From Thalassobaculaceae bacterium (lineage in GTDB: Bacteria > Pseudomonadota > Alphaproteobacteria > Thalassobaculales > Thalassobaculaceae), in NCBI GenBank assembly GCA_965228875.1, contig OZ245843.1, positions 4,508,616-4,572,615 on the forward strand: a stretch of DNA of 64,000 bases. Direction: 5' to 3'. Shown piece by piece: positions 12,954-38,385 of the stretch. Position 1 is the first letter of the stretch. Each line of letters begins with the position of its first letter. Both the position numbers and the translations under genes were made by a program. The notes beneath the pieces were generated by a model, which had not been told where the DNA came from, ran no database searches, and saw only the letters and a list, made by a program, of their open reading frames with translations.

Positions 12954-13032
12954 AGGTGACCTCCTGATGATTGCTGTGATGCGGGTGGCTTAGCACATTC
13001 GGGCGGGATCAGTCAGCGCGGGTCGGCCCCTG

Positions 13033-14259
13033 TTGCCAGACCGGTCCGGCCCTGCGACCATCGCGCGAGGACGAGGCGATCCGATGCCGGGGACCATGAC
13101 CTTCCACAAGGGACAGCAACGCCCCCTGCTGGCGCACGAGCGGCGGCAGATCGTCGGTTCGGCGGCGGTTCAGCCGATGGCGGCGGCTTTGCCTGCACGG
13201 CCTCATCCCCCGCAACCCCATCCCCTTCAGCCCAATCCTCTTCCGGCCCACCCGCTGCGGTCGGGCGCCAATCAACTGTCGGGCGGGTTTGTGCAGGCCG
13301 CGCAGTCCGCTGCCCATTCCGCAGCTCAGCCCGTTGTCCATCCTGCGGTCCATCCCCTGGTGGCGCGGCCGCTGCTGCCGCATGAGCGCCGGGCCGTGGG
13401 TGTGGGGCCGGCGACGCCGTCTGTGGTGCTTCCGGCCCTGGTGCCGCGCAGCCGCGCCCTGAGCCTGCCGGCGCGCCCGGTGGGGATGGCCGAGGCCGAT
13501 CCGCGTGCCGAAGCGACGGTTCGTCGCGCCGCCACCGAACGGAACGGCGAGGCCCGCATGCTGATGCGCGCCTTCGCCCAGACCAGCGGCCGGCTGCTGG
13601 ACCTGGGCGTCGCCATGATCGATGCGGCCGGCAGCCGCGCCCGACGCACACCGGCGGAGGAGAGCCGGCGCGGCGGCGACCGGGCGGTTCCCGGATACCG
13701 GAAGTACATGCACGGCACACTGCTGGATGTGCTGGAAACCGCACGGTACGGCCACTCTCTGGACCCGAACCGGCCGGGAGCCGACGCGCCGTCCTACCGC
13801 CGGTTCATGGGCGGTACGCTGGTCGATCTCTTCGAGAAGATGCAGGGCGAGCGGGAGCCGGGGATCGACCGGGACGACCCCTCGGGAGATGGGGCCGGCG
13901 GCGCGCATGCGCGCCAGAAACCGTCGCGGCTGCGCCGGGCGATGCACGGGACGCTCGTCGACCTGTTCGATGCCATGGCCGAACGGCGGGCCGCCGACGA
14001 GGCTGCCGACGTGGCCAGTGGCGACCGCGGCGGGCGGCGGCCGCTGACGGAAGCGGCGCGGCCACGGTCGATGTCGCTGGACACCGGCATGAAGGCTTTG
14101 GAGGAGCCGGCGTCCCAGAAGCGCGTCGACAACGGTGCCGAGCGCAAGGTCTCCGACAACCTGTCGCGCACGTCGTCGGAGCAGAGCCACGAGGTCGACG
14201 CGGTGTCGTCGCGCTCCCGCGCCTCGACCATGGGCGCCTCGGTCGCCGACATCGATTAG
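13033..14259 (+). CDS. Hypothetical low-complexity protein with internal repeats; true start may be further downstream
   Basis: 408-aa ORF converging on the end of the T6SS operon; repeated RPLLxHERR (2x) and M[HG]GTL[LV]D[VL][LF] (3x) support coding. Confidence 0.55.
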   Translation: MPDRSGPATIARGRGDPMPGTMTFHKGQQRPLLAHERRQIVGSAAVQPMAAALPARPHPPQPHPLQPNPLPAHPLRSGANQLSGGFVQAAQSAAHSAAQPVVHPAVHPLVARPLLPHERRAVGVGPATPSVVLPALVPRSRALSLPARPVGMAEADPRAEATVRRAATERNGEARMLMRAFAQTSGRLLDLGVAMIDAAGSRARRTPAEESRRGGDRAVPGYRKYMHGTLLDVLETARYGHSLDPNRPGADAPSYRRFMGGTLVDLFEKMQGEREPGIDRDDPSGDGAGGAHARQKPSRLRRAMHGTLVDLFDAMAERRAADEAADVASGDRGGRRPLTEAARPRSMSLDTGMKALEEPASQKRVDNGAERKVSDNLSRTSSEQSHEVDAVSSRSRASTMGASVADID

Positions 14260-14266
14260 TGCCTCG

Positions 14267-14668
14267 TCAGACCAGGGTCATGGTGTTGAACTGACCCGGG
14301 ACCAGCGACATGCCGACCATGTTGCCGAAGAACCCGTTCTGAAAGGTCGGATGCAGCATCTTGGTCGCCGGGATCCCCTCGAACAGGACCGTGAAGCTGG
14401 CGAGGAAGTTCCAGCTCGGTCCCATGACCAGTCCGGAGAGAATCCCGAGTTCGACGCCCCCGTCGTCGCCCTGGGTCAGCGGAACCATGCTGAGCATGTG
14501 GTGCGCCGGCATGGCCCAGATCGTGATGTTGACGCAGAAGTCCACCGCGGTGATCCGCATGCCCAGGTTGGGATAGGGGATCGGTACCGGCACGATGATC
14601 GGCGTCAGGCAGACGTCCGGGAACATGATGTCCAGTTCGATCGGCGAGTTGACGTTGTTGAAGACCAT
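14267..14668 (-). CDS. DUF4150 PAAR-like spike tip protein (TagD-like)
   Basis: FPDVCLTP...PIPYPN, GDDGGV.LGILSG.VMGP, FTVLFEG.PATK, QN motifs. Confidence 0.9.
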   Translation of the reverse strand: MVFNNVNSPIELDIMFPDVCLTPIIVPVPIPYPNLGMRITAVDFCVNITIWAMPAHHMLSMVPLTQGDDGGVELGILSGLVMGPSWNFLASFTVLFEGIPATKMLHPTFQNGFFGNMVGMSLVPGQFNTMTLV

Positions 14669-14718
14669 GGCGGTGTCCTGACGGGCGTGGACGGATTGCG
14701 GTCTCGCTGCGGCGGCGG

Positions 14719-15222
14719 TCAGCTCAACTGGATGCGGTCGGCCTCCAGCCGCATCTCCTTGCGGGCCGACATGAGGTGGTGGTGCGCGCGGGTGGTCAGC
14801 ACGTCACGAGCCTGGATCATCCAGCAGTCGGCGCTGGCGATCGCCGTGCGCGCAACCAGGGTGAGGCCGTCGATCGCGGTCTGGGTCAGACGTTGGGCGA
14901 CGATGGACACGGTGCCGAGCGGGGCCGACAGCGCAATCCCGCCGGCGGCCGCCAGCGACAGCCGGTCTCCCGCCCGGATCTCCAGGTCGCCCGCGGCCTC
15001 GACCGTCACCGGCGCGCCGTCCGGGCGCTCGAGCACCGACAGGATGTAGCGGTCACCCCCCTCCGGGTCGTCCCAGACCAGGACTCGGTCGCCCACCTCG
15101 GGGCGCACCAGGCAGCCGACAGCGCGTCGGGCCAGGCGGCCGTCATCGAGCACGGCCACCCCGTCGGCCAGCCGGTCGACCGTCCGGGCGGCGCCGCGTG
15201 TCAGGGTGAGGGTCTCGGTCAT
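14719..15222 (-). CDS. DUF3540 protein (TagC-like)
   Basis: ARRAVGCLVRPEVGDRVLV...YILSVLER and C-terminal RLEADRIQLS; start MTETL overlaps the upstream stop. Confidence 0.85.
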   Translation of the reverse strand: MTETLTLTRGAARTVDRLADGVAVLDDGRLARRAVGCLVRPEVGDRVLVWDDPEGGDRYILSVLERPDGAPVTVEAAGDLEIRAGDRLSLAAAGGIALSAPLGTVSIVAQRLTQTAIDGLTLVARTAIASADCWMIQARDVLTTRAHHHLMSARKEMRLEADRIQLS

Positions 15223-16238
15223 GGTCGTCCTCCATCGGGGGCGGGGATGAAAGGGGTGAAGCGTTTGGCCTCGCGTCGCGGCGGCGGTTCGTCGCGCCGT
15301 CGCCCGCGTCGGGACCCGGTGAAGTCCGCCCGCGTCAGGACGGCGTCGTCGAACGAGGCGAGGTCGAGGCTGGTGTCGCCGAAATCGGCATCGCTCAGGT
15401 CGGCGCCATCGAACAGGGTCTTCTCGAGCATGGCGCCGGAGAGCCGGGCACCGAACAGCGTCGCATCGACGAAGTTCGACGCCTTGGCCCGGGCACCGGA
15501 CAGGTCGGCCGCCGTCAGATCGGCCCCGGTGAACAGGCTGTAGCTTATGTCGGCCTCGCGGAAGGAGGTGCCGCGGGCCCTGGCCTGTGTGGCGTTCAGG
15601 CCTCCGAGGGCGGCGCCGTCGAACCGGACGCCGGACAGGTCGGCGCCGGTCGCGGTGACCTGGCTCCACGCCACGCCGGACAGGTCCAGCCCGGCCAGGT
15701 CCGACTTGGTGAGCAGCAACCGCACCGCCCGAAGACCGCGAAGCCCCACCGCCGGTCGAAGGTTCAGCGCGGACAGGGCGACGGTGTCGAACTGCGCGCT
15801 GTCGAAGCTGGTTCCGGCGACAGACCCGTCATGGATCGCGGCGCGGGCCCAGCGCGATCCGTCGAGCGTCGCCGACGCCAATGACGACCGGACCACCGAG
15901 AGACGCTCGGCGAAGACCCCGTCCAGCCGGCCCTCTGTCAGGTCGCTGTTCAGGATCGCCGTATTGGTCATCCGGGCGCCGGCGAGCCGGGCGCCGGTGA
16001 GCGTGCAGCTCTCGAACACGGCACCGTCGAGACTGCAGTCGGTGAGGTCCGCACCCACGAGGTTGCAATGCGAGAAGATCGTGCCCGGTCCCGCCGTCAG
16101 CCGGCGCAGGACGGTCCCGGCGAGGCTGCAGCCCTGGAGCACTGCCCCGGTCCAGTCCTGGCCGGACACGTCCACGCCGTCGAGCACCGCCCCTTCGACC
16201 GGGATCGCCAGGCGGGCGAGTTCGGGCACGTCGATCAC
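15219..16238 (-). CDS. Pentapeptide repeat protein (TagB-like)
   Basis: Long A(D/N)LxG-type repeats (GADLTAADLSGA, GADLSDADFG). Confidence 0.88.
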   Translation of the reverse strand: MIDVPELARLAIPVEGAVLDGVDVSGQDWTGAVLQGCSLAGTVLRRLTAGPGTIFSHCNLVGADLTDCSLDGAVFESCTLTGARLAGARMTNTAILNSDLTEGRLDGVFAERLSVVRSSLASATLDGSRWARAAIHDGSVAGTSFDSAQFDTVALSALNLRPAVGLRGLRAVRLLLTKSDLAGLDLSGVAWSQVTATGADLSGVRFDGAALGGLNATQARARGTSFREADISYSLFTGADLTAADLSGARAKASNFVDATLFGARLSGAMLEKTLFDGADLSDADFGDTSLDLASFDDAVLTRADFTGSRRGRRRDEPPPRREAKRFTPFIPAPDGGRP

Positions 16239-18823
16239 GTCCCGATCTCCAGCACCGCCGCCTGCTGCGGGTCGAAGCGGGCGCGGGACAGATCGGTCTT
16301 GGTCAGGTCCACCTCGAGCAGCGTGGCACCGACCAGGTTGGCGCCGCGAAGGTCGGTGTCGTCAAAGCTGGCCTTGCGCAGGTTGGCGTCCATCAGGTCG
16401 GCGCCGGCGAACCGGCAACGGGCGAGGTCGGCGCCGCCGAAGAGAGTTCGCCGCAGACTGGCGCCACGGAAGTCGCCGCCCGCCAGCACCGTCCTCGACA
16501 GGTCGGCGCCGGCCAGGTCAGTACCGAGGGCGGAGGCATCGGGCAGTTCCGCCCCGCTCCAGCCCGACCCGGACCCCGACGCCCGGTCCAGGACCACCGC
16601 CGGAAGGGCGTTGCGTCCGGCGACGCGCAGGCCGCGAATGTCGGCTCCGGCGAACGACACGCCCCGGCCGTCGCATTCCGACAGGGCGAACCGCTCGAAC
16701 CGGGCCCGCTCGAAGACGGCACCGTCGAGCCGGCAGTTGTGGGCGACGCCGAGGGCGAACGTCGCGCCGCTGGCGTCGACGCCGGACAGATCGGCATCGA
16801 CCAGCGCCACCTGTCGGAGCGCGGCGCCGGCCAGCGAGGCGCCCGCCAGGGTCAGTTTCGTCCAGCTGCCGTCGGTCAGGGTTGCGCGGTCGAACCGGGC
16901 CGCTGGCGCAGACAGGGCGTCTGTGGCGGCGCCGTTCAGGGTCGCGTCGGTGAAGTCCGTCCGGGAGGCCGATGCACCGCCGAGGTTCGCGGCGTCGAGA
17001 ACGGCGGCAGTGAACCGCGCGTCGTCCAGAATCGCCTCCGTGAGGACCGCGCCGCGCAGGATGGCGGAGGACAGGTCGGCGCCGCGCAGGTCCGCCCGCT
17101 CGAGCAGAGTGCCGCTCAGATCGCGCTTCGACAGATCCAGACCCGAGAGATCGGCGCCGGCGAGATCGCGCCCGGCAAGCGACACGCCGTCGGCAAGCCA
17201 GGTCCGCACCCGCTCCCTCAAGGCCGATCGCAGCGCGGCGGAGGGGGCGGCATTCGGCTTGAGCGCCCGCCGCGACAGCTGGCGTGGCAGACGGGCGGCG
17301 GCCTCGCCCCGGATGGCGGCGGCCCGGGTGGTATCCGCCGCGGCGGCACGCGGGTCGGGCAGCGCGAGTTCGGCCGCGTCCAGGGCGGCGGCGACGACGG
17401 CGAGGTCGTCCCGCTTCAGGTCCGCGGCGAGCGCATCGCGGGCGCGCCGCATTTCCGCTTCCGCCCGTTCGGCCTCGGCCCTGGCGCGGGCAGCTTCGGA
17501 GTCGAGCCTGTCGATCATCGCGCCGATGTCGATCTCGGTGGCGGCACGCGCCCGTGGCGAGACGAAGGTCGCCGGGTCGATCGTCGGCGCCGGCGGCGGC
17601 TCCGTCCGGGGGGCCTGGCCCATGCGCGCCCGCGCCCTGTCCTCCTGTGCCGCGGCGATCTCCGCCAAGCGCGCCTCGGCCGCGGCCAGGGCACCGGCGT
17701 CCTCGGCCGCCTCGCGCTCGAGCGTGGCCGCATCCTTGGCCGGGCGCAGCGGCGACCAGTCGAGGGCGAGGCGGGTCCGTCCCTCGGGCGACAGGCGCGC
17801 GCGCAGGGCGGCCTCGTAATGGTCGGCCGGCCGGGGGACGTCGCGGGCATCCTCATAGGCCAGAAGCAGGCCCGAGACGTCGGCGGCATCGCTGTCGCCG
17901 ACCGGAGCGATGCCGTGGAAGACGATCAGCACCATCTCCCGGTCGGGCAGGAAGACGACGGTGTCGAGCGTCATCTCGATCTCGGCGAAGGGGCCGTGCG
18001 GATCGTGGGGACCGTCGCCGAACAGCAGTGCCGACCGGGCGCGCAGCGGCGGCAACCGGCCCTCGATCACCGGCCGGGTCGGGTGCATCCCCTCCAGGCG
18101 ATAGGGCTCTCCGGGCTCGAACGGTCGTCCGGCCCACTGATCGGGCGCGGTGACGTTGCGCAGCGTGGGATCGTGGTCGTCCGGCAGACCGGGGAACCGG
18201 GTCCGCGCCCAGGCGAGGTCGTAGGTGCCCGCCTTCTCGGCGCGCGGGCTCCAGGCGATGTCGATCGCCCCGAGGGCAGCGGGCGGCGGCCGGTTCGACG
18301 GCGACAGCAGCGGCCGACCGGGCCGCTCCAGCAGCGGCATCGGGCCGTGGGGCCGGCCCTTGGCGTCCAGGCCGATCCCGATCGGGTTGACCGGATCCGC
18401 CGGCCCGCCGAATGCGCTGGCGTAGGACAGGTCGGTGGGCGCGAGCGGTTTCGCCTCCCCCGGCACCGACAGGCCGAGCGGCGTGCGGCGCCACGTCCGC
18501 GCGCCGAACACCAGGACCCGTTTGTCGATATCGGCGATCCGCATCCGCGCCTCGCTCCGCACGGCCCAGGCATCGTCCGGCGGGGGATGGGCGCTGCCGA
18601 CGACCATCGCTTCCGCCCGTGCCTTGGGGAATCCTTCGTCCAGCGCCTTGGGGCCACCCTCGGGCAGGGCCTGGGACAGGGGCCAGATCTTGCGCTCGTC
18701 GAGCGGCGCGTCCGGGGCGTCGATCGGCGCCGCCATGAGGGCGCCGACCGCCAGCCGGTGACCGCGCGGGTCGCCGAGCGGGCGGGCGATCACGCCAATC
18801 TGGAACGGTTTCACGATGTGCAC
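16235..18823 (-). CDS. DUF2169 adaptor fused to pentapeptide repeats (TagAB-like)
   Basis: LDEGFPKARAE, DKRVLVFGARTW, AFGG..DPVNPIG.G, RAEKAGTYD..W, LEGMHP, LDTVVFLPD; C-terminal pentapeptide repeats. Confidence 0.9.
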   Translation of the reverse strand: MHIVKPFQIGVIARPLGDPRGHRLAVGALMAAPIDAPDAPLDERKIWPLSQALPEGGPKALDEGFPKARAEAMVVGSAHPPPDDAWAVRSEARMRIADIDKRVLVFGARTWRRTPLGLSVPGEAKPLAPTDLSYASAFGGPADPVNPIGIGLDAKGRPHGPMPLLERPGRPLLSPSNRPPPAALGAIDIAWSPRAEKAGTYDLAWARTRFPGLPDDHDPTLRNVTAPDQWAGRPFEPGEPYRLEGMHPTRPVIEGRLPPLRARSALLFGDGPHDPHGPFAEIEMTLDTVVFLPDREMVLIVFHGIAPVGDSDAADVSGLLLAYEDARDVPRPADHYEAALRARLSPEGRTRLALDWSPLRPAKDAATLEREAAEDAGALAAAEARLAEIAAAQEDRARARMGQAPRTEPPPAPTIDPATFVSPRARAATEIDIGAMIDRLDSEAARARAEAERAEAEMRRARDALAADLKRDDLAVVAAALDAAELALPDPRAAAADTTRAAAIRGEAAARLPRQLSRRALKPNAAPSAALRSALRERVRTWLADGVSLAGRDLAGADLSGLDLSKRDLSGTLLERADLRGADLSSAILRGAVLTEAILDDARFTAAVLDAANLGGASASRTDFTDATLNGAATDALSAPAARFDRATLTDGSWTKLTLAGASLAGAALRQVALVDADLSGVDASGATFALGVAHNCRLDGAVFERARFERFALSECDGRGVSFAGADIRGLRVAGRNALPAVVLDRASGSGSGWSGAELPDASALGTDLAGADLSRTVLAGGDFRGASLRRTLFGGADLARCRFAGADLMDANLRKASFDDTDLRGANLVGATLLEVDLTKTDLSRARFDPQQAAVLEIGT

Positions 18824-18833
18824 GGCCGTCCCC

Positions 18834-21281
18834 TCACATCAGCATCTTGATGACGTTGATCTCGAGGTCGAGCACCGCCTTGATCGAGATGTGGACCCCC
18901 ATGCTCATATCGAGACTGTCGGTCATCGACATGCCGAGCCGGGTCGCCATGGTCATGTCCATCGAGCTGCCGATATGCATGTTCATGTTGTCGCCGATGC
19001 CGATGGACATGCCGTCGCCCAGATGCATGCTCATCTGGTCTCCGAGATGCATGCTCATGGCGTCGCCCAGATGCATGCTCATCTGATCGCCGAGATGCAT
19101 GCTCATGGCGTCGCCCAGGTGCATGCTCATCTGGTCTCCCAGATGCATGTTCATCGCGTTGCCGAGATGCATGCTCTCCTGGTTGCCCAGGTGCATGCTG
19201 GCGGCGTCGCCTAGATGCATGCTCTCCGCCTCCCCGATATGCGCCGACAGGTTGTTGCCGATGTGGACGGAAGTCGACATCGCGATGCTGATCGAGGCGG
19301 CGACGCCGATATGCATCGACGCCTGGTTGCCGAGATGGACCGACGCGGCGTCACCGAGGTGGGCCGAGGCCGCGTCGCCGAGATGCATGCTCGTCGCGTT
19401 GCCGATATGGGTCGAGTCGGCGTTGCCGATGTGCAGGTTGGTCTGGTTGCCGTGATGGTGCGAGGTCGGGTTGCCGTAGGCGATCGAGAGGTTGTGCTCG
19501 CCGTAGCTGCGGTGGAAGTCGTAGCTGTTGCCGTAGATGATGGAAACGTTGGAGTAGGGGCCGCCGCCGACGGTCGACTTGGCCTCGGCCTCGGAGAAGA
19601 CCGTGTTCACCTCCGACGCGCGGTCGGACGTCGGGCCGATCTGGACGTGGACGTTGGCGCCGACCGAGGCGTTTTTCATCGGTCCGCAGTTGCGGTTGTC
19701 CATGGTTCCGTCGATCACGAACTGCATCGTTCCGACCTGATAGGACGAGGTGTCGCCGATCGTGGTGTGCGGGATGTCGACCGCCGGCGCGTTGATCGCC
19801 CCGTGGGACCAGATCATGCCGACGATCTCCGGCACCATCGAGAGGCCGGTCGCGGGGCCGACCAGCACCACGGCGCCGATCTCCGGCGCGGTCTGCATCC
19901 CGGCGCCAAGGCGCACCCAGTACGGCGTGCCCCGGTCCCAGGGAAACTCGACATAGACGCCGTAGGTCCAGATTTCGAACTCGCTGCTCTGGGTGGCGTC
20001 GTACTGCGGCGGCGGGATCAGCTCGACCGGTTCCATGCAGGCGCCGGGGTCCCACGGCGCCGGGCTGTCGCCGGGACCCCGGACCACGGTGGCGATCGAC
20101 GGGCCGAAGTAGATGGTGTCGAACGGATCCCGCACCGTGCCGAAGGGGTGGCTCGGCGGGTTGCCGGTGAAGCGCACGATGTGGACGCCGTCCTCGTCGG
20201 ACTCCACCGACATCTGGCTGATGACGAAGTCCTGCCCGTCCAGTTCCCTGCGCGGATGGTTGGTGACGGTGAAGACGTGGCCGGCGAGCATCCCGAAGGC
20301 GGTCGACGTGCCGGTCAGGCTCTCGGCGTCGAAGCGGACGGATTCCGCCGCCCGCCGGTTCGACATGTCGGCCCAGTCCGCACTGGTCTCGACGTCGTAG
20401 AGGAGCACCCGCTCGAAGCTGACGGTCTGGTTGTAGCGGTCGTTCTCGAGGATCGTCGCCTTGGCGCTGGGCGCGGTGGAGACCCGCTGTCCCATGGTCG
20501 ACATGATCGTCTTGCCGGTCTGGGGCGTCAGCTGCTGCTGATAGCTGTAGGCGAGGATCAGGTCGTCGCTCGGCCGCGTGTCGTCGAGCGAGAACAGCGC
20601 GCGCAGCTTCTGCGGCTGGTCGTCGGGGGCGTTCGGCGTGTAGCAGTCGGCATAGGCCTCGGCGTTGTCGGCCAGCACGAGGACATGCTCGCAGCCGGCG
20701 GTCTGCGGCGTCTGCTTGAAGAAATAGAAGATGCCGGTGCGCTGCATCAGCTGGGAGATGAAGGACAGGTCGGTTTCGCCGTTCTGCAGCCAGTCGTGCT
20801 TCTCGATGGTGGTCATCGGATTGCGGTAGCTGGTCTCGAAGGCGATGCCGTGACGGTCGAGCACGGCGGCGATGACGTCGGGCACCGTGACGTTGACATA
20901 GAGCTCGTACTTGTTGGCCAGGGCCAGACGCCACAGGGCCGGGCGCATGTCGACCTCGTAGGTCACCTCGCCGGTGGAGCGCAGGGCGGTGACGATGCCG
21001 TTGACATAGACGCGGGTCTCGCCGCCCGACAGGGTGTTCGGCGCCGCGCCGGACGCGTGTCGGGGGCCGACATAGGCGAAGGTCACCGGAGAGCCGACGA
21101 CGTCGGAGAAGTCGGCGTTGGCGTCGGCGCCGGCCAGCGACAGGGTGTAGAGGAACGGCGCGGAGATCTGCTCCTGGCCCTGCACGGAGATCAGACGGAA
21201 GGCGGTCGCATCGATCGAGCCCGGCCAATGCACGAGCACCAGGGGCGTGTTCGGCGGCGGCGGTGGGGGCAGGTCGCTCAT
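18834..21281 (-). CDS. vgrG: T6SS spike protein VgrG (divergent), with a His/Met-rich octapeptide C-terminal beta-helix
   Basis: GQEQISAPFLYTL, QNGETDLSFISQLMQRTGIFYFF, OB-fold VEFPWD..WVRL..PEIG; start MSDLPPPP overlaps the tssG stop. Confidence 0.9.
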   Translation of the reverse strand: MSDLPPPPPPNTPLVLVHWPGSIDATAFRLISVQGQEQISAPFLYTLSLAGADANADFSDVVGSPVTFAYVGPRHASGAAPNTLSGGETRVYVNGIVTALRSTGEVTYEVDMRPALWRLALANKYELYVNVTVPDVIAAVLDRHGIAFETSYRNPMTTIEKHDWLQNGETDLSFISQLMQRTGIFYFFKQTPQTAGCEHVLVLADNAEAYADCYTPNAPDDQPQKLRALFSLDDTRPSDDLILAYSYQQQLTPQTGKTIMSTMGQRVSTAPSAKATILENDRYNQTVSFERVLLYDVETSADWADMSNRRAAESVRFDAESLTGTSTAFGMLAGHVFTVTNHPRRELDGQDFVISQMSVESDEDGVHIVRFTGNPPSHPFGTVRDPFDTIYFGPSIATVVRGPGDSPAPWDPGACMEPVELIPPPQYDATQSSEFEIWTYGVYVEFPWDRGTPYWVRLGAGMQTAPEIGAVVLVGPATGLSMVPEIVGMIWSHGAINAPAVDIPHTTIGDTSSYQVGTMQFVIDGTMDNRNCGPMKNASVGANVHVQIGPTSDRASEVNTVFSEAEAKSTVGGGPYSNVSIIYGNSYDFHRSYGEHNLSIAYGNPTSHHHGNQTNLHIGNADSTHIGNATSMHLGDAASAHLGDAASVHLGNQASMHIGVAASISIAMSTSVHIGNNLSAHIGEAESMHLGDAASMHLGNQESMHLGNAMNMHLGDQMSMHLGDAMSMHLGDQMSMHLGDAMSMHLGDQMSMHLGDGMSIGIGDNMNMHIGSSMDMTMATRLGMSMTDSLDMSMGVHISIKAVLDLEINVIKMLM
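18960..19470 (-). repeat. Coding 24-bp tandem repeat (8-aa unit SMHLGD[AQ]M) in the vgrG 3' end
   Basis: + strand AGATGCATGCTCAT recurs with a 24-nt period; 18 H-[LI]-G units counted in the protein; boundaries approximate. Confidence 0.9.
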
Positions 21282-24102: not shown

Positions 24103-24124
24103 GCGTCACTCCCGGTCGTCGCCA

Positions 24125-24598: not shown

Positions 24599-24658
24599 CT
24601 CAGGCCGCCGCGGGTCCGGCGTGTCCGATCATCGCCGACAACCGGGTCATCGCAATCC

Positions 24659-25168: not shown

Positions 25169-25210
25169 CGAAGTTCTCCCTTGTCTCTAACTGTCGGTCC
25201 GCGGTCCGGA

Positions 25211-27592: not shown

Positions 27593-27599
27593 CCCATCC

Positions 27600-27830
27600 C
27601 CCGTCGCTCGGCGCCGATCTTTGATTGGAGTTCGGATCGCCTTCTTCAAGCGTCGAAATCCTCGCAATCGCAAGCTGCTAGCTTATGATTGCAGATAACT
27701 CACAAAACATTACGGCTTGGGTGATACTTCGTCAATTTGGAAGAATCGCGAGTGGCGAGAATAGATTAACGCATACAATGAATCAGTGTGAATCTCTGCA
27801 CGTCGATCCGGGTCGCGCCCATAGGGACGG
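27600..27830 (-). promoter_or_regulatory. AT-rich intergenic region, probable promoter for the tssBC-hcp-baseplate-vgrG operon
   Basis: Marked drop in GC relative to flanking genes; no clear consensus identified. Confidence 0.45.
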
Positions 27831-29033: not shown

Positions 29034-29061
29034 CGTCGGCAATCCTCGCTGCGCGCCACCT

Positions 29062-32000: not shown

Positions 32001-33108
32001 CGATGCGGCCGTCGAACAGGTCGGCCAGCAGGATCGGGCGGGAAGCGTCGTCGACGCTGGCACGCGGCACCCGGCTGTCGGGCCGGGCCGAACCGCTCGC
32101 ATAGATGCCGCGCAGCCAAGGCACGTCGCGGGCGGCACTCTCCTGGAACACCGGCGTGAGAACCCGCCGCAGCGGCGCGGCGAGGGCACGGGTCACGGCC
32201 CCGAGGGCCAGCACCGCTTCGCGTCGGTCTGGCACGCCGTCGTCGCGGGCCAGGAGCAGTGTCGGCTGCGCGGACTCGAAGGCCGCCGCGATGCGGTTCA
32301 CGGCATCGTCGATCTGCGCGCCGTCGTAGGTGGCGTCCAGCGACTGTGCGTTCGACCAGCCGACCGTCTGTCCCCGCCTCGCGCCGACGACGTGATGGAC
32401 CAGCGCGTCGAAACCCGGAACGGCGTCGTAGCCTGCGACCACGACGTAGACCGGCAGTCGCCGGCCGGCGCGCTCCTGAAGTCGGGCGATGCGCCGCGCC
32501 GCGCCCTCGCCAAGAGCGGCGAGTCCGCCGTCCTCAAGCGCTTCGGGGCCGGTCAGTCGACTGGCGGCGACGCTCAGCACCACGGCATCGACCGGCCGGG
32601 TCGGGCGCCAGTCCAGCAGCAGGCTGATCAAACCGTCCCACTCCTCCTCGGGCGATCCGGCCTCGCCGGCGGCCGCCACCAGGGGGATATCGGTCGTATC
32701 CAGCAGGGCGATCCGGCGGAGCACCTGCCAGCGCCGGTCGCCGCCCGTGTCGGCGGCCGGGTCGCGGGGCAGCTCGGCACGCACGAGATCGAGATTCCCG
32801 CCGCCGGCGGCGTCCCCGATCACCAGCGCGACCGCCCGGCTGGAGGCGACCGCGGGCGGCGGGCTGGAGGCGCGTCGGCGGTCGCGCCCGCGCCACCAGC
32901 CACGGGGCAGCAGTCGCGTGGGTCCGAGTCCGACGAACCGGCGGATCAGCAGCCAGACGACCCTGGCGATCAGGATCAGGACGACGGCGGCGACCGCGCC
33001 GACGACGGCGAGGACAATCGGATCGCCGAGCCATCCCGAGAGACTGCGCCAGGGATCGTCCCAGTCGATCAGCGCCAGGGACTGCAGGAGGTTGGTGAGG
33101 GGCTGCAT
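29062..33108 (-). CDS. tssM: T6SS membrane complex TssM/IcmF-like protein (divergent)
   Basis: WRPTRPVDAVVL, RLPVYVVV..D.VPGF, TVGWS, WLRGIYASG, DLF; TM followed by a long helical region and a C-terminal beta domain (GDPWSLLRL). Confidence 0.85.
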   Translation of the reverse strand: MQPLTNLLQSLALIDWDDPWRSLSGWLGDPIVLAVVGAVAAVVLILIARVVWLLIRRFVGLGPTRLLPRGWWRGRDRRRASSPPPAVASSRAVALVIGDAAGGGNLDLVRAELPRDPAADTGGDRRWQVLRRIALLDTTDIPLVAAAGEAGSPEEEWDGLISLLLDWRPTRPVDAVVLSVAASRLTGPEALEDGGLAALGEGAARRIARLQERAGRRLPVYVVVAGYDAVPGFDALVHHVVGARRGQTVGWSNAQSLDATYDGAQIDDAVNRIAAAFESAQPTLLLARDDGVPDRREAVLALGAVTRALAAPLRRVLTPVFQESAARDVPWLRGIYASGSARPDSRVPRASVDDASRPILLADLFDGRIADEVGIAAPSRRVVARQRLRRNRSAAIFAGLAVATLAAALLGWRDLDRSTAAMTSTIRELDAALAAPSGTASERAVQATRMTAALTELDRIPSTSVFNPVSLLFGLDGVLNPAVSDRLAHSVGPQIVSDAFRRSGALLQTPTGLSGDNAVAAMTAWIADALAVEQDVQTIRAARLETLTVDPLAIQGLLHRTYRVKLPLMSPATARRIAAAVGVAAEGVRFDLAGVAGRLGPKIVAAAPALARPPGTGFAVVAQLEKVNRTLARVMTARADPAQVVSGTARRLSADLDSLAETLAGSGSATADELALAALLPQVRKSLILGEGAADALATALDGRATAVAGAISPFRYPVAPAPVPLLAGNDDGEPPVLSPPVAAFRTQLASLTAADFFRPASGLAIRTVLADGTFMNWEAEGLQAVLDLYGDYDAFVASLNDGGGDLTPELRSALTAMAGRGLVDAMDARLATAQTITRPVAPGDAAAEEAALGAAAVSLQGALVPIQEVQGVLLKFQNVSTAGDFAAANRENAAAILDAADRVYHRAAGTQYDPEVPWSLWDGGETATTFAYRVGNASALANYLAAARGRVSTVARSYAQPAVAYLRNGASALSPGEQATLTRWNATLVTLTEYENGVKRGNTLGELESFFASPLLAMTGESCLDDLAKVTPPPVTDLFSQEFATLLDDIDRRCAELDEGQVEGNYDKIVSLFENDLSPYFPFAPAASPNAPPSARRPPPPIPPETVRAATSQLASVLPEARKELAFLAKTGARTADAAGFLDRLKASLDLLGALVPQVANGPVPAVTVAPSFRLDLAGAAGADQVLEWTVTAGSESAVYPIAVSNLAWALGTPVSVGFRWPKNGPVAPASGNGYSWSDRSVTFAPVPAGDPWSLLRLMLANQAPASAFALAPKGRDPNTLAFKVATNRSSADAAGNTTTRSQTAQLYIALGLTGRDATGKEVPMVLPNFPVSAPALPSQPTATTGG

Positions 33109-33109
33109 C

Positions 33110-34015
33110 TCAGGTGTCCAGGCGCGTGGGGCCGTCGGCCGGCGCGGTTACCGACAGAGATGCGACCGACAGGCCGGCGCCCAGGTCCGAGCGGACGGAC
33201 GCGAGGATCAGGGCCGAGGCGATCAGGAATGCGACGAGGACGGCCCAGGCGCCACGCACCCAGGGGCGCGCGGATGCCGGGGCGGATGTGGGCGAACCGG
33301 CGACGACATGGCCATAGGCGGCGGGTGTCAGTCGGGAGTCCGTCGCGTCGCCGCCGCCGTGGGCGACGGCGATGAAGGTGCGCAGGCGGTCGACCACCCG
33401 GCCGAACGCATCGGGGAAGAACCGAAGCCGGCCGCGAAAGCCGAGGGCCAGGACCGTGAGGTAGACCATGGCGAGGTCGCCGTTGGCTCGGGTGCGCGGC
33501 GCGCTGTCGAGGGCGGCGATCATGTCGAGCAGGCGGTCGCCGGCGGCCCGAGACCCGAACAGGCGCGCCTCCAGCAGATGCCCGAGCCAACCGCCGCCGC
33601 CGACCTCGAACTCGAGGATGTCGTCGGCAAGCGCCGCCATGGCGTAGTAGGCGTCGCGCCGCCAGGTCGCCGAGGCGGGTGTCACGCCCGCTCGCTCCAT
33701 GCGCGCCGACAGGTCCGCTGCAAGCTGGTCGGCGACATTGCTCAGCCGTTCGGCCGACGCACCGGTCGGTCGGTCCGCGCCACCGGAGCCGGACAGGGCG
33801 ACGGCGGCGATCGCATCCGCGTCCGACATTCGGGCCAGATCACCGCCGGACGAGAGCAGGTCGCGGGCCACGAGCACCCGGGCGCCGAACGCCCGCAGGT
33901 CGGCCAACAGGTCTCCTTCACTTGAGCGGTCCCCGTCCACCCGTGCATTCCTCTCCGTCGTGCCAAGACTATGTGCCTGACTATGCACTCTATTGTTGAT
34001 CGAAGTATCGGGCAA
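33110..34015 (-). CDS. tssL: T6SS TssL/DotU (no OmpA domain); start uncertain
   Basis: YAMAALADDIL, W..HLLEARLFGSRAAGD, VYLTVLALGFRGR, C-terminal TM. Confidence 0.88.
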   Translation of the reverse strand: MPDTSINNRVHSQAHSLGTTERNARVDGDRSSEGDLLADLRAFGARVLVARDLLSSGGDLARMSDADAIAAVALSGSGGADRPTGASAERLSNVADQLAADLSARMERAGVTPASATWRRDAYYAMAALADDILEFEVGGGGWLGHLLEARLFGSRAAGDRLLDMIAALDSAPRTRANGDLAMVYLTVLALGFRGRLRFFPDAFGRVVDRLRTFIAVAHGGGDATDSRLTPAAYGHVVAGSPTSAPASARPWVRGAWAVLVAFLIASALILASVRSDLGAGLSVASLSVTAPADGPTRLDT

Positions 34016-34022
34016 TGCCGGG

Positions 34023-34661
34023 CTATTTTGTCGTTTGTACGGTTATTGCCTTGGATTTTTTCGCTTCAGGGGCGAGCGGGACTGCGATCAGGGGGTGATC
34101 GTAGCGGCCCGCGAGGGCATTGGCCGCAGCCTCGGCGTCGCCGCCCGTCGCATAGTCGCCGACGGTGACCATTGACCAGACCCGTCCCCCGGAGCCGGTG
34201 GCCTTGCGGACCATTGCCGCCAGACCGTCCGCCGACAGCCGTCGGGCAAGGGTGTCCGCCGGGGCCTCGTGCAGAAAGAGGTCGACGCGGACCGTCCAGC
34301 GCCAGCCGTCGGTCCCGGCCTGTGAGTCGGCCTGTGCGCCTGGAACGGGCGGGACGGCCGGCACGGGAATCGGCGGCGTGGCATCGGTGATCAGGGGAGG
34401 CGGAGGCGGTGGGCCGGATGCCTTCCCCTTGGCGTCGGCCGGCGCCATTCCCGCGGTTTCGGCGGTGTTGCTCCCGCTCCGCGCGGGCGCGGTCGCCGAG
34501 CCTGTCGCCCCGTCCGTCACCGGGGCCTGGGTCGGTGCCGGAGCGATCTGAGCGGTCACCGCCGCCCCCGCCAGGGCGCCGACGAACAGGACGGCAACCT
34601 TCTGCAGTCCCTTGCGTTTCAGAAGCGGTTGCTTGGGCACGACCGGCGGACTGATCTTCAT
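34023..34661 (-). CDS. Membrane-anchored SPOR-domain protein
   Basis: N-terminal TM, Pro/Ala linker, WTVRVDLF...WSMVTVGDYATGGDAEAAANAL SPOR-like pattern. Confidence 0.65.
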   Translation of the reverse strand: MKISPPVVPKQPLLKRKGLQKVAVLFVGALAGAAVTAQIAPAPTQAPVTDGATGSATAPARSGSNTAETAGMAPADAKGKASGPPPPPPLITDATPPIPVPAVPPVPGAQADSQAGTDGWRWTVRVDLFLHEAPADTLARRLSADGLAAMVRKATGSGGRVWSMVTVGDYATGGDAEAAANALAGRYDHPLIAVPLAPEAKKSKAITVQTTK

Positions 34662-34776
34662 GCGGTTATCCCGGCAACGGGTCGGTGGCGGGTCGTTTCA
34701 TCATACAGCGAGACCGCTTGATTGTAATTCTCGGTCAAATAGAGTGGATTGACCGTACCTCTGACCTGCTGGACCG

Positions 34777-36498
34777 ATGCCTGTCTCTGTCGCCGCCGCC
34801 AAGCACATCACCGAAGGCCTGCTGCGCAGCGGCCGCTCGGCGGATGCCGTGGTGGCGGCCAACCGTCTCCTGGGCCTGGCGCCGCGGGATGTCGGCGCAT
34901 TGCGGCTGGCGGCCGAGGCGCGGCTCGCCGCGGGGGATGCGCCCGCGGCGAGCGACCCGATCCGCCGTGCCCGGGCCATCGACCCGTCCTGTCCCCGTCT
35001 CATGGCCCTGGAGGCCCGCAGCCTTGCGGGCGCGGCGGATCCGCAGCCGGCCCTCGGCCTGTTTGCGTCCGCGCTGGCGGCGGCGCCGGAGGACGACGAG
35101 GTCCGCCTGTCGGCGCTCGCATTCCTCCTCGCGCGTGACGAGCCGGCGCGCGCCTGGGAGGTTGCGGAGCCGCTGGTCGCGGTCGGCCGTCAGACCGAGC
35201 CGTCGGCGCTCGAACTCATGGCGGCGGCGGCCGAACGGGCGGACCGGGACGAGGCGGCCGCGGCGCTGTGGTCGCGTCTGGTCGACCTGGCGCCGGAGCG
35301 ACCGGCGGGCCATGCCGGACTTGGCCGGCTGGCCGCACGGTCTGGCCGACCTGTCGAGGCGCTCGACCGGTTCGAAGCGGCGCTGCTGGCCGCGCCGACG
35401 GATCTCGGCGTTCTGGCAACGGTCGCGGCCGCGGCCGTCGATGCCGAGGCCTCCGATCGCGCTTCGGATCTCATCGCCCGGCTTGAAACCCTGCTGCCGG
35501 CTCATCCGGCGCCGCACCGGCTGGCGGCACGGCTTGCCGGGCGTGCAGGCGATCCGGCGGCGGCGGTGGATCACCTGCTGCGGGCTCTCGACCGCACCGC
35601 GGACGATTCGACGCTATACGTCGCATTGGCCGAGGCCCTGGGACGTCAAGGGCTGTGGGCGGATGCGCTGCGCGCCCTCGACACCGCGCCGGCGGCGTTG
35701 CGCCGGCATCCGATCGGCCGCAAGGCGCGGTTGGCGGCGGCGCTCGGTGCGGGCGACGCTTCCGCCTGGCCGGCCTATGTCGGCGCTGACGGACCGCCGG
35801 ACATCTCCGCCGCCGGCCCGGTGACGGTCATGGCTGCGAGCGATGTCCGCGAATTCCTGGTCCTGAGCCGGTGGCTGCCGGCTCTGTCGGCACGTGTCGG
35901 TGCGGTGACGCTCGCGGTCGACCGACCGCTGCATCGCCTGGCGGCCCGGTTGCCGGGGGTGGCGCGCGTGGCGGATGGCGGCCCGGGAGAGACGGGCGGC
36001 GCCCGTCTCGACATGCGCTGCCTGCCACTGTTCGGTGTCCCCGACCCCCACATGCGGCCGAAACTGGATGCCGGTCGGGTGGCGGCATGGCGGCGGCGGA
36101 TCGGCGGCGGACGCCTTATCGGCGTGGTCTGGGACGCGCCGGGGCCGGTGCTCGACGCGCCGTATCCGCGCGACCGGCTGGCGCTCCTGACCGCGCTGGC
36201 CCGGTCCGAGGGCGTGCCGGTGGCGGTCCAGTGGGGCCTGGCGCCCGAGGCCGCCCGCGCGCTCGGCATCGTTCCCGCCGCCGATGCGGCGACGGATTTC
36301 GACGACCTCGTGCATCTTCTGGCGGCGATGGACACCGTCATCGGCGTCGACGGCGCGGCGCTGCATCTGGCGGCCCTGGCCGGGGTTCCGACGGTCCTGA
36401 CCGCCGACACGGCAGAATCCTGGTGGTGGCGGCTGCCGGACCTCAGCGCGATTGCGCGCGCGACCCCCGATGCGCTTCGGCCGGGCAGGGCGGCATGA
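34777..36498 (+). CDS. TPR-repeat protein with a degenerate GT-B (GT9-like) C-terminal domain
   Basis: TPR-like helices, then IGVVW and DFDDLVHLLAAMDTVIGVDGAALHLAALAGVPT. Confidence 0.7.
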   Translation: MPVSVAAAKHITEGLLRSGRSADAVVAANRLLGLAPRDVGALRLAAEARLAAGDAPAASDPIRRARAIDPSCPRLMALEARSLAGAADPQPALGLFASALAAAPEDDEVRLSALAFLLARDEPARAWEVAEPLVAVGRQTEPSALELMAAAAERADRDEAAAALWSRLVDLAPERPAGHAGLGRLAARSGRPVEALDRFEAALLAAPTDLGVLATVAAAAVDAEASDRASDLIARLETLLPAHPAPHRLAARLAGRAGDPAAAVDHLLRALDRTADDSTLYVALAEALGRQGLWADALRALDTAPAALRRHPIGRKARLAAALGAGDASAWPAYVGADGPPDISAAGPVTVMAASDVREFLVLSRWLPALSARVGAVTLAVDRPLHRLAARLPGVARVADGGPGETGGARLDMRCLPLFGVPDPHMRPKLDAGRVAAWRRRIGGGRLIGVVWDAPGPVLDAPYPRDRLALLTALARSEGVPVAVQWGLAPEAARALGIVPAADAATDFDDLVHLLAAMDTVIGVDGAALHLAALAGVPTVLTADTAESWWWRLPDLSAIARATPDALRPGRAA

Positions 36499-36965
36499 CC
36501 GGACCGCTGGCCACGCGACGTGTGGTTCTGGCCGCATTCGCCACTGTCCCGGTCGCCGGCTGTTCGCTGGTCGACGACCTGCTGCCGAACAACAGCCTCG
36601 ACAGCATCGCCCTGACGATCGCGCCGAAGGTGAACGACGACACGCCGCTCGCCGTCGACTTCGTCTATGTCGCCGACGCCCAACTCGTGACCGCGCTGAC
36701 CGCGCTGACGGCGGTCCAGTGGTGGCAGCAGCGTGCCGATCTTGCGCTCGCCAATCCCACCACCCTGACGGTCGAGAGTTATGAAGTCTCGCCGGGGCAG
36801 GTACCGCCGGTTGTGACCCTGCCGGAAAGCGCCGGCGACGCGGTCGCGATCTTCGTCTTTGCGGTCTATCAGACGCCCGGCGCCCATCGCGCCCGTCTGG
36901 AGAACTACTCCGACGCGGTTGTGGCGCTCGGAACCAAGTCCTTCACCGTCAGTGGATCCACGTGA
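36495..36965 (+). CDS. tssJ: TssJ-like T6SS lipoprotein
   Basis: MTGPLATRRVVLAAFATVPVAG-C lipobox; VNDDTPLAVDFVYV, YEVSPGQ, FVFAVYQTPG.HR; directly upstream of tssK. Confidence 0.75.
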   Translation: MTGPLATRRVVLAAFATVPVAGCSLVDDLLPNNSLDSIALTIAPKVNDDTPLAVDFVYVADAQLVTALTALTAVQWWQQRADLALANPTTLTVESYEVSPGQVPPVVTLPESAGDAVAIFVFAVYQTPGAHRARLENYSDAVVALGTKSFTVSGST

Positions 36966-37017
36966 TGCTTCGCCTTCCTTCCGCCGCCGCCATGACCCGA
37001 CGCGAAAGGCCGCACGC

Positions 37018-38385
37018 ATGAGCCGCTACGACGAAGACCTGCCGGACGCGGTGGCGTGGGCCGACGGCCTGCATCTCCTGCCACAGCATTTCCAGCTCGA
37101 GCAGAGCCGCACCGAAGGGCTGGTGCTGGCGGCGCGGCAGGACCTCAACGTCTTCCACTATGGAGTGACGCGGTTCGAGGCCGATATGGAAGCGGCGAAA
37201 ACCGGACTGTTCACCGTTCTCTCCATCGACGCGGTGATGCCCGACGGTACGGCGATCCGCCGCTCCGTCGAGCAGGACGAGGCGCTGCGCCTGGACCTGT
37301 CCTCGGCGCTTGGCGAGCTCAAGGTCGATACCGACTACACGCTGGTCCTGTCGGTCCCCGCGCGCCTGACGGGCATGGGCAATGGCGAAGGGCGGCTCGC
37401 TACTTACCAGGGACCCGCGGTGATCGACCAGATCGCTGGCGACGTCAGCGAGCGCGTGGTCCGCGCGCGGCCGCGCATCGCCCTGAAGCTGAAGGGGGAG
37501 GTCGGGACCAGCGAGGTGACGCTGGACCTGATCCGCTTCCGGCTGGTCGACGGGCAGGTGCGGGTTCTGGACTACATTCCGCCGACGCGGGCGGTGACCG
37601 TCGCCTCGCCGATCGGACGGCTGGTCGACAGCGCCCTCGGCCGGATGCGGGCCAAGGCGCGGGGCGTCGTCGAGACCCGAACGCTGAGCGACAGCGGCCC
37701 CGTGGCGGCGATGCAGCTTCGCCTGGCGCTCGCCGCGCTGGTCGGACCGTTGCTCGACCTGGAGGTGCTGCTGGCGACGGGGGCGGCGCATCCTCTGGAT
37801 CTGTACCGGTCGATGGCGCGCGGCCTCGGGCCGTTGACGGCGCTGGTCGGGGCGGCGGTTGAGGACCGGCTGCCGGTCTACGACCACGACGACCCGCGCG
37901 GCGGCTTCGACACGGTGATCGGGCGGATCGACGCGCTGCTCGACCGGGTCCAACTGGCCTATCGCACGCTGGCTTTCCGCCGCGACGGCGGGGGCTGGGA
38001 ACTGGCGCTGGATGACCAGGCGTTCTCGGAGCTGTCCAGGTCGCGCGGCGAGGCAGGGCTGCTGATCGGCCTGTTCACGCCGGGCACCATGGAGACCGAG
38101 CGGGTCGACCGGTGGATGCGCGACGCCATCGTCTCCTCGGCGGAGCGCATTGGCGACCTGCAGCGTGCCCGGTCGCTCGGCCTGCAGCGCACGGGGGTCG
38201 ATTCCGACCCGGAGACCGGCATCCTGCCGCCGAGCGGAGTGCTGATGTACGCGCTGCACGACTGGGTCGATGTGCTGTCGGCCTCGCAGAGCAGAATTCT
38301 ACGGATTGAGGGCAATGCCGGCGATCCGGCACGGGTGGCGACCCCGACGTCGATCGTGATTTTCATCCCGACCCAAGGCTCCTGA
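37018..38385 (+). CDS. tssK: T6SS baseplate TssK
   Basis: VAWADGLHLLPQHFQ, AVMPDGT, DYIPP, HPLDLY, PVYDHDDP. Confidence 0.92.
   Translation: MSRYDEDLPDAVAWADGLHLLPQHFQLEQSRTEGLVLAARQDLNVFHYGVTRFEADMEAAKTGLFTVLSIDAVMPDGTAIRRSVEQDEALRLDLSSALGELKVDTDYTLVLSVPARLTGMGNGEGRLATYQGPAVIDQIAGDVSERVVRARPRIALKLKGEVGTSEVTLDLIRFRLVDGQVRVLDYIPPTRAVTVASPIGRLVDSALGRMRAKARGVVETRTLSDSGPVAAMQLRLALAALVGPLLDLEVLLATGAAHPLDLYRSMARGLGPLTALVGAAVEDRLPVYDHDDPRGGFDTVIGRIDALLDRVQLAYRTLAFRRDGGGWELALDDQAFSELSRSRGEAGLLIGLFTPGTMETERVDRWMRDAIVSSAERIGDLQRARSLGLQRTGVDSDPETGILPPSGVLMYALHDWVDVLSASQSRILRIEGNAGDPARVATPTSIVIFIPTQGS

Follow-up and report, generated by a model that had tools for sequence, protein, structure and literature searches.

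A 64,000-nucleotide stretch of contig OZ245843.1 from an alphaproteobacterium of the family Thalassobaculaceae (assembly GCA_965228875.1; hereafter the window) carries a type VI secretion system (T6SS) in which the sheath is encoded by a single gene, fusing the small subunit TssB to the large subunit TssC. In textbook T6SSs the sheath consists of two proteins, and the free N-terminal helix of the large subunit is offered to ClpV for recycling. We consider it likely that the 26-kb island bearing these genes is an acquired, complete system of the T6SS-i lineage that is maintained by selection, forms a single-chain sheath, operates independently of ClpV and uses a class III Tvp spike. The full-length single-chain sheath without ClpV appears to be the new element of this system; the class III Tvp spike genes are known.

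Since the window has ~70% G+C, genes were chosen by their third-position G+C, and their starts were set from the translations. Gene names were assigned by matches to Pfam and NCBIfam profiles, each compared with the cut-off of its family (97.25 bits for TssB, TIGR03358; 271.5 bits for TssC, TIGR03355; 885 bits for ClpV). Sheath loci were called fused or split only by stop-to-stop reading of open reading frames (ORFs) in the DNA; the open-frame lengths in genome-search output run across a single tssB stop and are unusable for fusion calls.

The sheath gene occupies the tssB-tssC slot between tssA and hcp, and no separate tssB or tssC is present in the island. It translates without a stop from 27,682 to 25,214 (an 820-codon open frame), yielding 793 aa from the ATG, and both family models match within this one ORF, TIGR03358 with 129.6 bits and TIGR03355 with 549.7 bits, the latter over positions 17-473 of 473. 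The closest structural reference is 9n4v, named by Foldseek as an extended sheath-tube complex of Azotobacter vinelandii (a literature search on the code 9N4V found no paper). Residues 3-149 align with its small subunit (chain B) and residues 307-792 with positions 16-491 of the 493 in chain A. The full model coverage and the alignment with 9n4v therefore indicate that both polymerising ends are present, and the TssB-TssC fusion proposed in a first-pass annotation of the window is confirmed.

The two parts are joined by a linker that contains 32% alanine and exceeds by ~100 aa the length expected if the 9n4v pair were joined head to tail. In an AlphaFold monomer model built from 26 sequences (predicted local distance difference test score, pLDDT, 81; predicted TM-score 0.74), the linker forms three long helices (residues 166-207, 212-258 and 264-287, mostly with pLDDT 78-95), which are followed by a floppy segment (289-302) and a short helix (310-319). 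The insert between TssB and TssC is thereby predicted to be a helical hairpin of ~135 aa. The TssC part of the model fits solved TssC chains with target TM-scores of 0.84-0.92 (Foldseek). A single-chain sheath of the T6SS-iv type, or of the phage, antifeeding prophage (AFP) or Photorhabdus virulence cassette (PVC) type, was also considered and rejected: the sheaths of phages and extracellular contractile injection systems give query TM-scores of only 0.21-0.27 with the fused sheath, at 9-13% identity, and the chain is composed of TssB plus TssC.

About a dozen studies have yielded metagenome runs (aquatic, marine and coral) that contain near-identical DNA. Contigs from four studies span the sheath gene without any indel, two of them in a single piece. 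Of the 26 substitutions listed in the sheath gene, only two alter the protein, the other 24 being synonymous, and no stop codon arises. The fusion is neither an artefact nor a decaying gene and, as judged from sequence variation, the island is kept under purifying selection.

No ClpV was found among the island ORFs by Pfam or NCBIfam. The genome, a single 4.96-Mb contig with 70% G+C, has a canonical T6SS near 1.93 Mb, in which tssB and tssC are separate genes and which contains the sole TssJ match and the only ClpV above the cut-off (1183.8 bits; C1:1,930,290-1,932,956), which lies 2.6 Mb from the island. The previously noted absence of ClpV thus holds for the island and fails for the genome. 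A partial TssC-like paralogue (C1:1,940,763-1,941,776; 39 + 56 bits, 617-codon open frame) is located beside the canonical tssB, tssC and clpV. A second fused TssB-TssC, 643 aa long and with a short linker, is encoded ~72 kb upstream of the window (C1:4,436,230-4,438,158, or L011:12230-14158). It is surrounded by genes for Hcp, TssF, TssK, a long DotU, a divergent VgrG with a DUF4123 adaptor and a caspase-like Peptidase_C14; no TssM or TssA was recognised at this second locus, nor any ClpV within 10 kb on either side of its sheath gene.

To describe the distribution of fused sheaths, we searched 1.84 billion representatives for sheath homologues, obtaining 7715 matches, and examined 157 homologues (the best 150 of the 7715 plus some from another search). 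In 124 of these 157, both the TssB and TssC parts occur in one chain, with very variable spacing. A set of 160 external loci contains ten fused ones: five of the 80 species-representative loci (Dyella monticola, two Holosporales metagenome-assembled genomes (MAGs), an Algicola MAG and one unclassified MAG) and five of the 80 metagenome loci. We also sampled 401 species of the window's class, of which 80 have this sheath type. DNA reading of the 33 sheath loci with a long frame or an adjacent ClpV identified 13 as fused, so called in 13 of the 79 other T6SS-bearing species, all with genomes of 0.5-2.0 Mb and 32-48% G+C. Several candidates for fused loci adjacent to ClpV (G295, G102, G097 and others) were rejected, as the DNA has a stop between tssB and tssC in all of them. 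Relatives of the locus were not found with a single-protein query; an alignment query was needed. Public records name the fused proteins 'sheath large subunit' or 'ImpC', and our literature search, whose view excluded subscription-only papers and most supplements, found no natural full-length TssB-TssC fusion described as a working sheath.

Fused sheath loci of the relatives surveyed lack ClpV at both the locus and the genome level. When only external loci with 3 kb or more of DNA on each side are considered, ClpV is encoded in the flanks of none of the five fused loci and of 61 of the 80 split loci; with all flank lengths included, it is found near none of the ten fused external loci. Within the class sample, ClpV above the cut-off is present in none of the 13 fused genomes and in 36 of the 66 others (Fisher p 1.5e-4). 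In the 4.9-Mb genome of Dyella monticola and in a Holosporales MAG, the matches (838 and 815 bits, respectively, below 885) do not exceed the ClpB level.

The region of TssC to which ClpV binds has changed in the same proteins. According to the available text of PMC5048182, ClpV is recruited via TssC's N-terminal helix. The motif [LIMV][LIMV][DE] of this helix is retained in 52 of 62 split sheaths with ClpV, 13 of 19 split sheaths without ClpV and 3 of 12 fused sheaths. The ratio of helix to core conservation follows the same order (0.92, 0.79 and 0.63). Core conservation is equal across the three groups, and a value as low as that of the fused proteins did not occur in any of 2000 size-matched subsamples. 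In the window's sheath, the counterpart of the docking helix reads TILEKLF (model helix 310-319) versus SLLDQI. By this measure of conservation, the ClpV-docking helix of TssC has specifically decayed in the fused proteins. The suggestion of the first-pass annotation that such a sheath is differently recycled or not recycled is a fair reading because the single-chain sheath and the lack of ClpV are real and coincide across genomes, the helix has decayed in fused proteins and no description was found in the literature searched.

On a tree built from 177 TssC domains whose labels were verified in the DNA, 11 changes between the split and fused states are needed, at least five of which are forced by well-supported branches; fusion is therefore recurrent. 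In an earlier tree, the window's sheath was placed in a 20-row clade with 99% support, in which 18 of the 20 rows are fused. In 24 of 147 split loci (e.g. L027, L035, L038 and L039), tssB and tssC are in frame with only the tssB stop between them, so that fusion appears easy to reach, by one substitution in about one-sixth of split loci.

Among other fused loci, that of Dyella monticola, a cultured soil bacterium, and L126 share the gene order of the window (fused sheath, hcp, tssE-F-G, vgrG, tvpAB, tvpB); the Holosporales fused loci are sheath plus hcp mini-operons among housekeeping genes. Many fused relatives from the class survey are nearly linkerless, with 36-73 residues between the matched parts. 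Two metagenome loci with a fused sheath (L118:6242-8146 and L136:3299-5104) also encode a TssL (DotU) fused to a cytoplasmic TssM N-domain, 602-635 aa long; the periplasmic part of TssM is missing and so is TssJ, pointing to a strongly reduced membrane complex. Some fused sheaths (P0061, P0077, P0124, P0079 and others) carry long N-terminal extensions that include a WD40 propeller, an FGE-sulfatase-like domain or a Ser/Thr kinase with VIT and VWA domains; other extensions of 300-800 residues match no family. One 2151-aa fused chain combines two sheath units, tetratricopeptide repeats (TPR), a kinase and the C-terminal part of TssK.

Based on these observations, the following scheme can be proposed for the window's system. 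Each sheath protomer would be one polypeptide composed of TssB, the ~135-aa helical-hairpin insert and TssC; since both halves are full length, the chain is expected to form a polymer around the Hcp tube in the manner of a normal TssB/TssC pair. A baseplate of TssE-F-G-K and VgrG, docked to a TssL-TssM membrane complex without TssJ, would be the starting point of assembly, and the spike would consist of the long-prism VgrG and the DUF4150 PAAR-like tip, built with the class III Tvp chaperones. The insert would lie on the outside of the sheath, at the point of emergence of the TssB C-terminus and the flexible TssC N-terminus. The firing cycle would be normal apart from the one-chain sheath and would not use ClpV; we infer that firing takes place, with ClpB, general proteostasis or dilution then removing the contracted sheath. 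In lineages without ClpV, the N-terminus of TssC would be freed from its role as a docking and threading handle, and loss of the tssB stop could then be tolerated and fixed repeatedly.

The strongest competing explanation, which we nevertheless regard as improbable, is that the canonical T6SS supplies ClpV in trans for recycling of the fused sheath, making the island's system dependent on ClpV. The genome does encode that bona fide protein, and the model retains, at residues 310-319, a short docking-helix homologue with a floppy segment before it. Against this, the motif of the helix is degraded both here and in most fused proteins, the docking segment has lost its position at a free N-terminus, and neither the 13 other fused genomes nor Dyella monticola has a ClpV above the cut-off. 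The available text of PMC5048182 further reports that ClpV1 and ClpV2 of enteroaggregative Escherichia coli are not interchangeable, non-cognate ClpVs failing to substitute, and places the flexible TssC residues 1-60 at the sheath surface; these data argue against recycling in trans and for room at the junction. It is still less probable that the fusion is only genetic and that cleavage in the floppy segment or an internal TssC start restores a two-chain sheath. The low-confidence residues 289-302 just ahead of the TssC part could in principle accommodate such processing, but the linker is modelled as a confident helical hairpin and only one of its three substitutions changes the protein, which together suggest that the linker belongs to the mature protein; moreover, the short spacing in many fused relatives leaves little room for a processing site.

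Nor do we expect the island to be a silent or decaying remnant that does not fire, an explanation to which we give very little weight. It would account for the lack of TssJ and of a recognised effector, and for a TssM with a degenerate P-loop and a score far below the family cut-off. All genes are intact, with overlapping starts and stops, the population substitutions in the sheath gene are overwhelmingly synonymous, and the locus is nearly identical across the metagenomes of about a dozen studies. The Acinetobacter T6SS reportedly lacks TssJ. A non-canonical membrane complex is described for that T6SS in the available part of PMC10564176. Finally, the fused gene could encode a short, non-polymerising TssB-TssC accessory paralogue instead of the structural sheath, similar to the partial TssC-like paralogue of the canonical locus; this is hardly credible for a protein that is full length at both ends and encoded in the tssB-tssC slot of an island with no other sheath gene and no ClpV.

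Several points weigh against an acquired, selected and ClpV-independent single-chain system as the explanation of the island. PF12790 matches TssJ only at the canonical locus, at 1.94 Mb, and no island ORF resembles a TssJ lipoprotein; with TssJ missing and the NCBIfam scores of TssM, TssL, VgrG and Hcp falling short of the respective cut-offs, a non-canonical or incomplete membrane complex is possible. The island also has no recognised effector-immunity pair. The helical hairpin was modelled in a monomer, and a hairpin of that size may not fit the extended sheath lattice; function and expression of this locus are predicted from sequence, and the ClpV of the canonical locus may act here in trans. 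The branch of the window's sheath is long, and the trees disagree on where it belongs. The genomes in the comparison of fusion with ClpV are related; reduced to three independent pairs, the association is not significant (sign test p 0.5-1). In addition, ClpV absence extends beyond fusion: 19 of 81 split loci have no ClpV nearby, and 30 of the 66 non-fused class genomes, many of 0.9-2 Mb, have none above the cut-off anywhere. Since many split systems are also without ClpV, its loss is a wider state, inside which fusion appears to be nested.

The island itself was delimited by comparison with congeners. Their DNA synteny with the window breaks at ~12,965-13,030 and resumes at ~39,044. An empty site with flanks ~170-230 bp apart was found in three congeners (G006, G009 and G003), and none of ten congeners has an ortholog of the window's sheath. 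The synteny gap and the empty sites therefore define the whole system, together with orf13033, the SPOR and TPR genes and orf38529, as one island, which by this comparison appears to have been acquired horizontally and to have arrived as a unit. Neither a tRNA at the island nor flanking repeats at its ends were found, Rfam had no match in window positions 12,000-40,000, and no promoter or terminator was detected on scanning the tssA-tssBC spacer. Relatives in plasmid records are all below 60% identity, and all 12 listed match in two pieces. Features of the island are summarized in Table 1.

Table 1. Features of the T6SS island (window coordinates; scores in bits; names reflect profile matches unless stated otherwise).
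Feature	Position	Strand	Evidence
Genomic island	13030..39044		Absent from congeners, DNA synteny
orf13033, Pro/Ala/Arg-rich, 3 copies of a ~14-aa motif (YRKYMHGTLLDVLE-like)	13084..14259	+	Third-position G+C; no Pfam/NCBIfam family
PAAR-like tip (DUF4150/Tox-PAAR-like), 133 aa, without toxin extension	14267..14668	-	PF13665 109.3
TvpC-type (DUF3540), 167 aa, ATG overlaps upstream stop	14719..15222	-	PF12059 91.6; name from PMC13373197
TvpB-type pentapeptide-repeat protein	15219..16238	-	PF00805 118.1
TvpAB-type: DUF2169 and C-terminal pentapeptide repeats	16235..18823	-	PF09937 204.8, PF00805 135.2
VgrG spike, 815 aa	18834..21281	-	PF05954 154
TssG	21278..22321	-	TIGR03347 200, cut-off 143
TssF	22285..24102	-	TIGR03359 531.6, cut-off 260
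TssE	24125..24598	-	TIGR03357 72.4, cut-off 53
Hcp tube protein	24659..25168	-	PF05638 108.3; NCBIfam 42, below cut-off 58.9
Single-chain sheath TssB-linker-TssC, 793 aa, only sheath gene	25211..27592	-	Profiles, structure alignment, model
TssB part, residues 1-165	27098..27592	-	9n4v_B residues 3-146; TIGR03358 positions 10-143 of 160
Linker, residues ~166-302	26687..27097	-	Composition, model, comparison with 9n4v chains A/B
TssC part, residues ~303-793, with internalised docking-helix counterpart and complete C-terminal domain	25214..26686	-	9n4v_A alignment
TssA	27831..29033	-	TIGR03363 222.2, cut-off 161
Divergent TssM, 1348 aa	29062..33108	-	PF14331 116.2; TIGR03348 78.4, below cut-off 388
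TssL (DotU); start GTG 33,988 or TTG 34,015	33110..33988	-	PF09850 69.4
SPOR-domain protein, 212 aa, first gene of minus-strand unit	34023..34661	-	PF05036 29.3, cut-off 21
115-bp divergent intergenic region between units	34662..34776		Sequence
TPR protein, doubtful glycosyltransferase-9-like (GT9) C-terminal half	34777..36498	+	TPR_19 44.8; GT9 21.6, below cut-off 22
TssK	37018..38385	+	TIGR03353 167.6, cut-off 100
orf38529, 152 aa, last island gene	38529..38987	+	No family, no signal peptide, not TssJ

Twelve T6SS core functions were identified in the island by Pfam and NCBIfam, with TssA, E, F, G and K above the NCBIfam cut-offs and Hcp, VgrG and the PAAR-like protein above those of Pfam. 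The genes form a tightly packed minus-strand unit running from 34,661 down to 14,267 (SPOR, tssL, tssM, tssA, the tssB-tssC fusion, hcp, tssE, tssF, tssG, vgrG, DUF2169 plus pentapeptide, pentapeptide, DUF3540, DUF4150 PAAR-like) and a divergent plus-strand unit at 34,777-38,385 (the TPR protein and tssK). The start of vgrG overlaps the tssG stop in an ATGA, as does that of the DUF3540 gene with the preceding pentapeptide gene. The two divergent units with tssA to tssM, hcp, vgrG and PAAR genes listed in the first-pass annotation were recovered except for tssJ. No FHA, PpkA or PppA domain was detected by Pfam in the 20 ORFs scanned, as had been stated. Two further genes lie at the island ends. 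The orf13033 is convergent with the PAAR gene and may be either a candidate cargo or an unrelated passenger. DNA 81-83% identical to orf38529 occurs at unrelated positions in four congeners (G009, G006, G003 and G004), and this gene seems to have moved into the island or with it.

The genes downstream of vgrG form a published module that had not been recognised as such. In the available text of PMC13373197, the class III Tvp system of Serratia marcescens (VgrG1-TvpAB-TvpB-TvpC-Paar1) accompanies VgrGs with a long prism; TvpAB combines DUF2169 with pentapeptide repeats, TvpC is a DUF3540 protein, the PAAR protein belongs to DUF4150, and a TvpAB-TvpB-TvpC-PAAR pre-complex forms and is handed to VgrG. 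The island encodes a TvpAB, a separate TvpB, a long DUF3540 TvpC and a DUF4150 PAAR, and by domain content these genes can be assigned to the class III Tvp spike-chaperone set, which is of an already known kind.

The C-terminal prism of the window's VgrG is built of ~21 octapeptide repeats (L/I)G(D/N)xxSMH and contains 9% histidine and 12% methionine, in agreement with the His/Met tail noted earlier. The Dyella and L126 VgrGs keep the octapeptide period but are rich in Ser/Thr, with at most 1% of His and Met. The His/Met composition is thus real and specific to the lineage of the window's VgrG. Of the co-occurrence that had been suggested between fusion, ClpV absence and such a VgrG repeat, the link of fusion with ClpV absence stands and that with the His/Met repeat does not. 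For the proposed targeting of metals or a eukaryotic host, the sole hint is that many fused relatives occur in small genomes resembling those of Holosporales endosymbionts.

At the expected Walker A site, TssM has GDAAGGGN, in which the lysine of the Walker A consensus is missing, so the decay described for this motif is real. Only the cytoplasmic domain of TssM is recognisable by Pfam. BLASTP against the canonical TssM of the genome aligns residues 152-336 (26% identity, E 1e-11), with a weak C-terminal match (E 0.04). TssL ends in a membrane anchor without a peptidoglycan-binding extension. The SPOR protein, whose gene adjoins tssL, consists of an N-terminal membrane anchor or signal, a Pro-rich spacer and the SPOR domain, and it probably supplies the peptidoglycan anchor that TssL lacks. 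Among other fused loci, a SPOR gene recurs only at the edge of the Dyella locus, together with a sigma-54 activator.

Both the SPOR and TPR assignments of the first-pass annotation are supported by profiles, whereas the glycosyltransferase assignment of the TPR protein is weak: its score is just below the cut-off, and the model of the protein is usable for the TPR part only, residues 330-573 having pLDDT below 50. No relatives of the TPR protein were found beyond one variant, 97% identical, on a metagenome contig. This variant compares with only two amino-acid changes in the sheath gene across four runs, and the TPR gene seems to evolve faster than the sheath gene. A 2026 review of T6SS accessory factors (PMC13584744) mentions neither glycosyltransferases nor tetratricopeptides in its available text, where 'spor' occurs only as sporulation. 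A single subtype defined by all these oddities, as initially proposed, was rejected: the SPOR gene recurs only in Dyella, the TPR protein is without relatives among the fused loci, the His/Met prism is unique to the window, and the fusion arose several times.

These observations allow a broader speculation, which we put forward tentatively and would not expect to hold in full. Single-chain sheaths may represent a recurrent and so far unremarked state of ClpV-less T6SSs, reached by one stop loss once the TssC handle has been freed, after which the junction evolves modules. The junction inserts range from 30 to more than 340 residues and include predicted helical hairpins, and some relatives carry N-terminal kinase, WD40 or VWA domains; possible roles of such junction and N-terminal modules are the recruitment of another unfoldase such as ClpB, the tuning of contraction and the docking of partners. 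Within the same speculation, the His/Met-rich VgrG prism would be a metal-binding or pH-sensing spike.

The window provides a natural one-chain protein, maintained by selection, as the sole sheath of a T6SS; such sheaths are frequent both in endosymbiont-like bacteria and in some free-living ones, and ClpV is absent from the surveyed fused loci. They give a handle on two questions, namely how contracted sheaths are cleared in the many T6SSs without ClpV, and why TssB and TssC stay apart although about one-sixth of split loci are one substitution from fusion. The plain label 'sheath large subunit' on fused chains is a blind spot of annotation. The junction is, in addition, a permissive site for inserts at the sheath surface and may aid sheath tagging or engineering.

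Among known systems, the island is closest to T6SS-i. Its sheath has the same folds and domain order as the T6SS-i sheath pairs of Azotobacter vinelandii (9n4v), Pseudomonas aeruginosa (TssB1/TssC1, 5n8n) and Vibrio cholerae (VipA/VipB, 3j9g and 5ojq); the TssC part is 52% identical to 9n4v_A (Foldseek) and scores 535.7 bits by sequence. The baseplate genes (TssE/F/G/K), TssA, Hcp, VgrG and PAAR are all present, and the baseplate, tube and TssA genes resemble those of canonical T6SS-i. The island differs in encoding, instead of separate tssB and tssC, one chain in a single frame that is also seen in independent contigs, with a helical insert of ~100 extra aa and an internal, degraded docking helix, and in having no TssJ or ClpV at the locus, the only ClpV above the cut-off being the distant one of the canonical system.

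The T6SS-ii of Francisella has no ClpV gene, and its sheath is disassembled by the general chaperone ClpB, as summarized in the available text of a review (PMC10433429). The IglA/IglB sheath is thus a working precedent for ClpV-independent recycling, although it consists of two separate proteins and belongs to a distant lineage. Assignment of the island to T6SS-ii was rejected, since IglB reaches 205.8 bits versus 535.7 bits for the T6SS-i sheath and the core genes match T6SS-i models. With respect to the spike, gene order and domains are identical to those of the Serratia class III Tvp system, including the long-prism VgrG; the island differs from it by a His/Met-rich prism and by the lack of an effector-immunity pair after the PAAR gene.

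Related systems occur in Holosporales endosymbionts. The T6SS of 'Candidatus Bodocaedibacter vickermanii' is reported to be transcribed, and the available text of PMC8163844 lists tssB and tssC, with ClpV and fusion unmentioned there; one supplement of that paper mentions none of tssB, tssC and ClpV. The Holosporales MAG loci L036 and L079 belong to the same sheath lineage as the window, with sheaths 49-52% identical to the window's, and the fused sheath plus hcp mini-operons look like the Holosporales T6SS layout in the accessible part of PMC8163844, many members being fused. The Holosporales genomes are small and their T6SS genes scattered, whereas the window's system is a single compact island in the 4.96-Mb genome with 70% G+C, and it has a long sheath linker as well as the Tvp spike genes.

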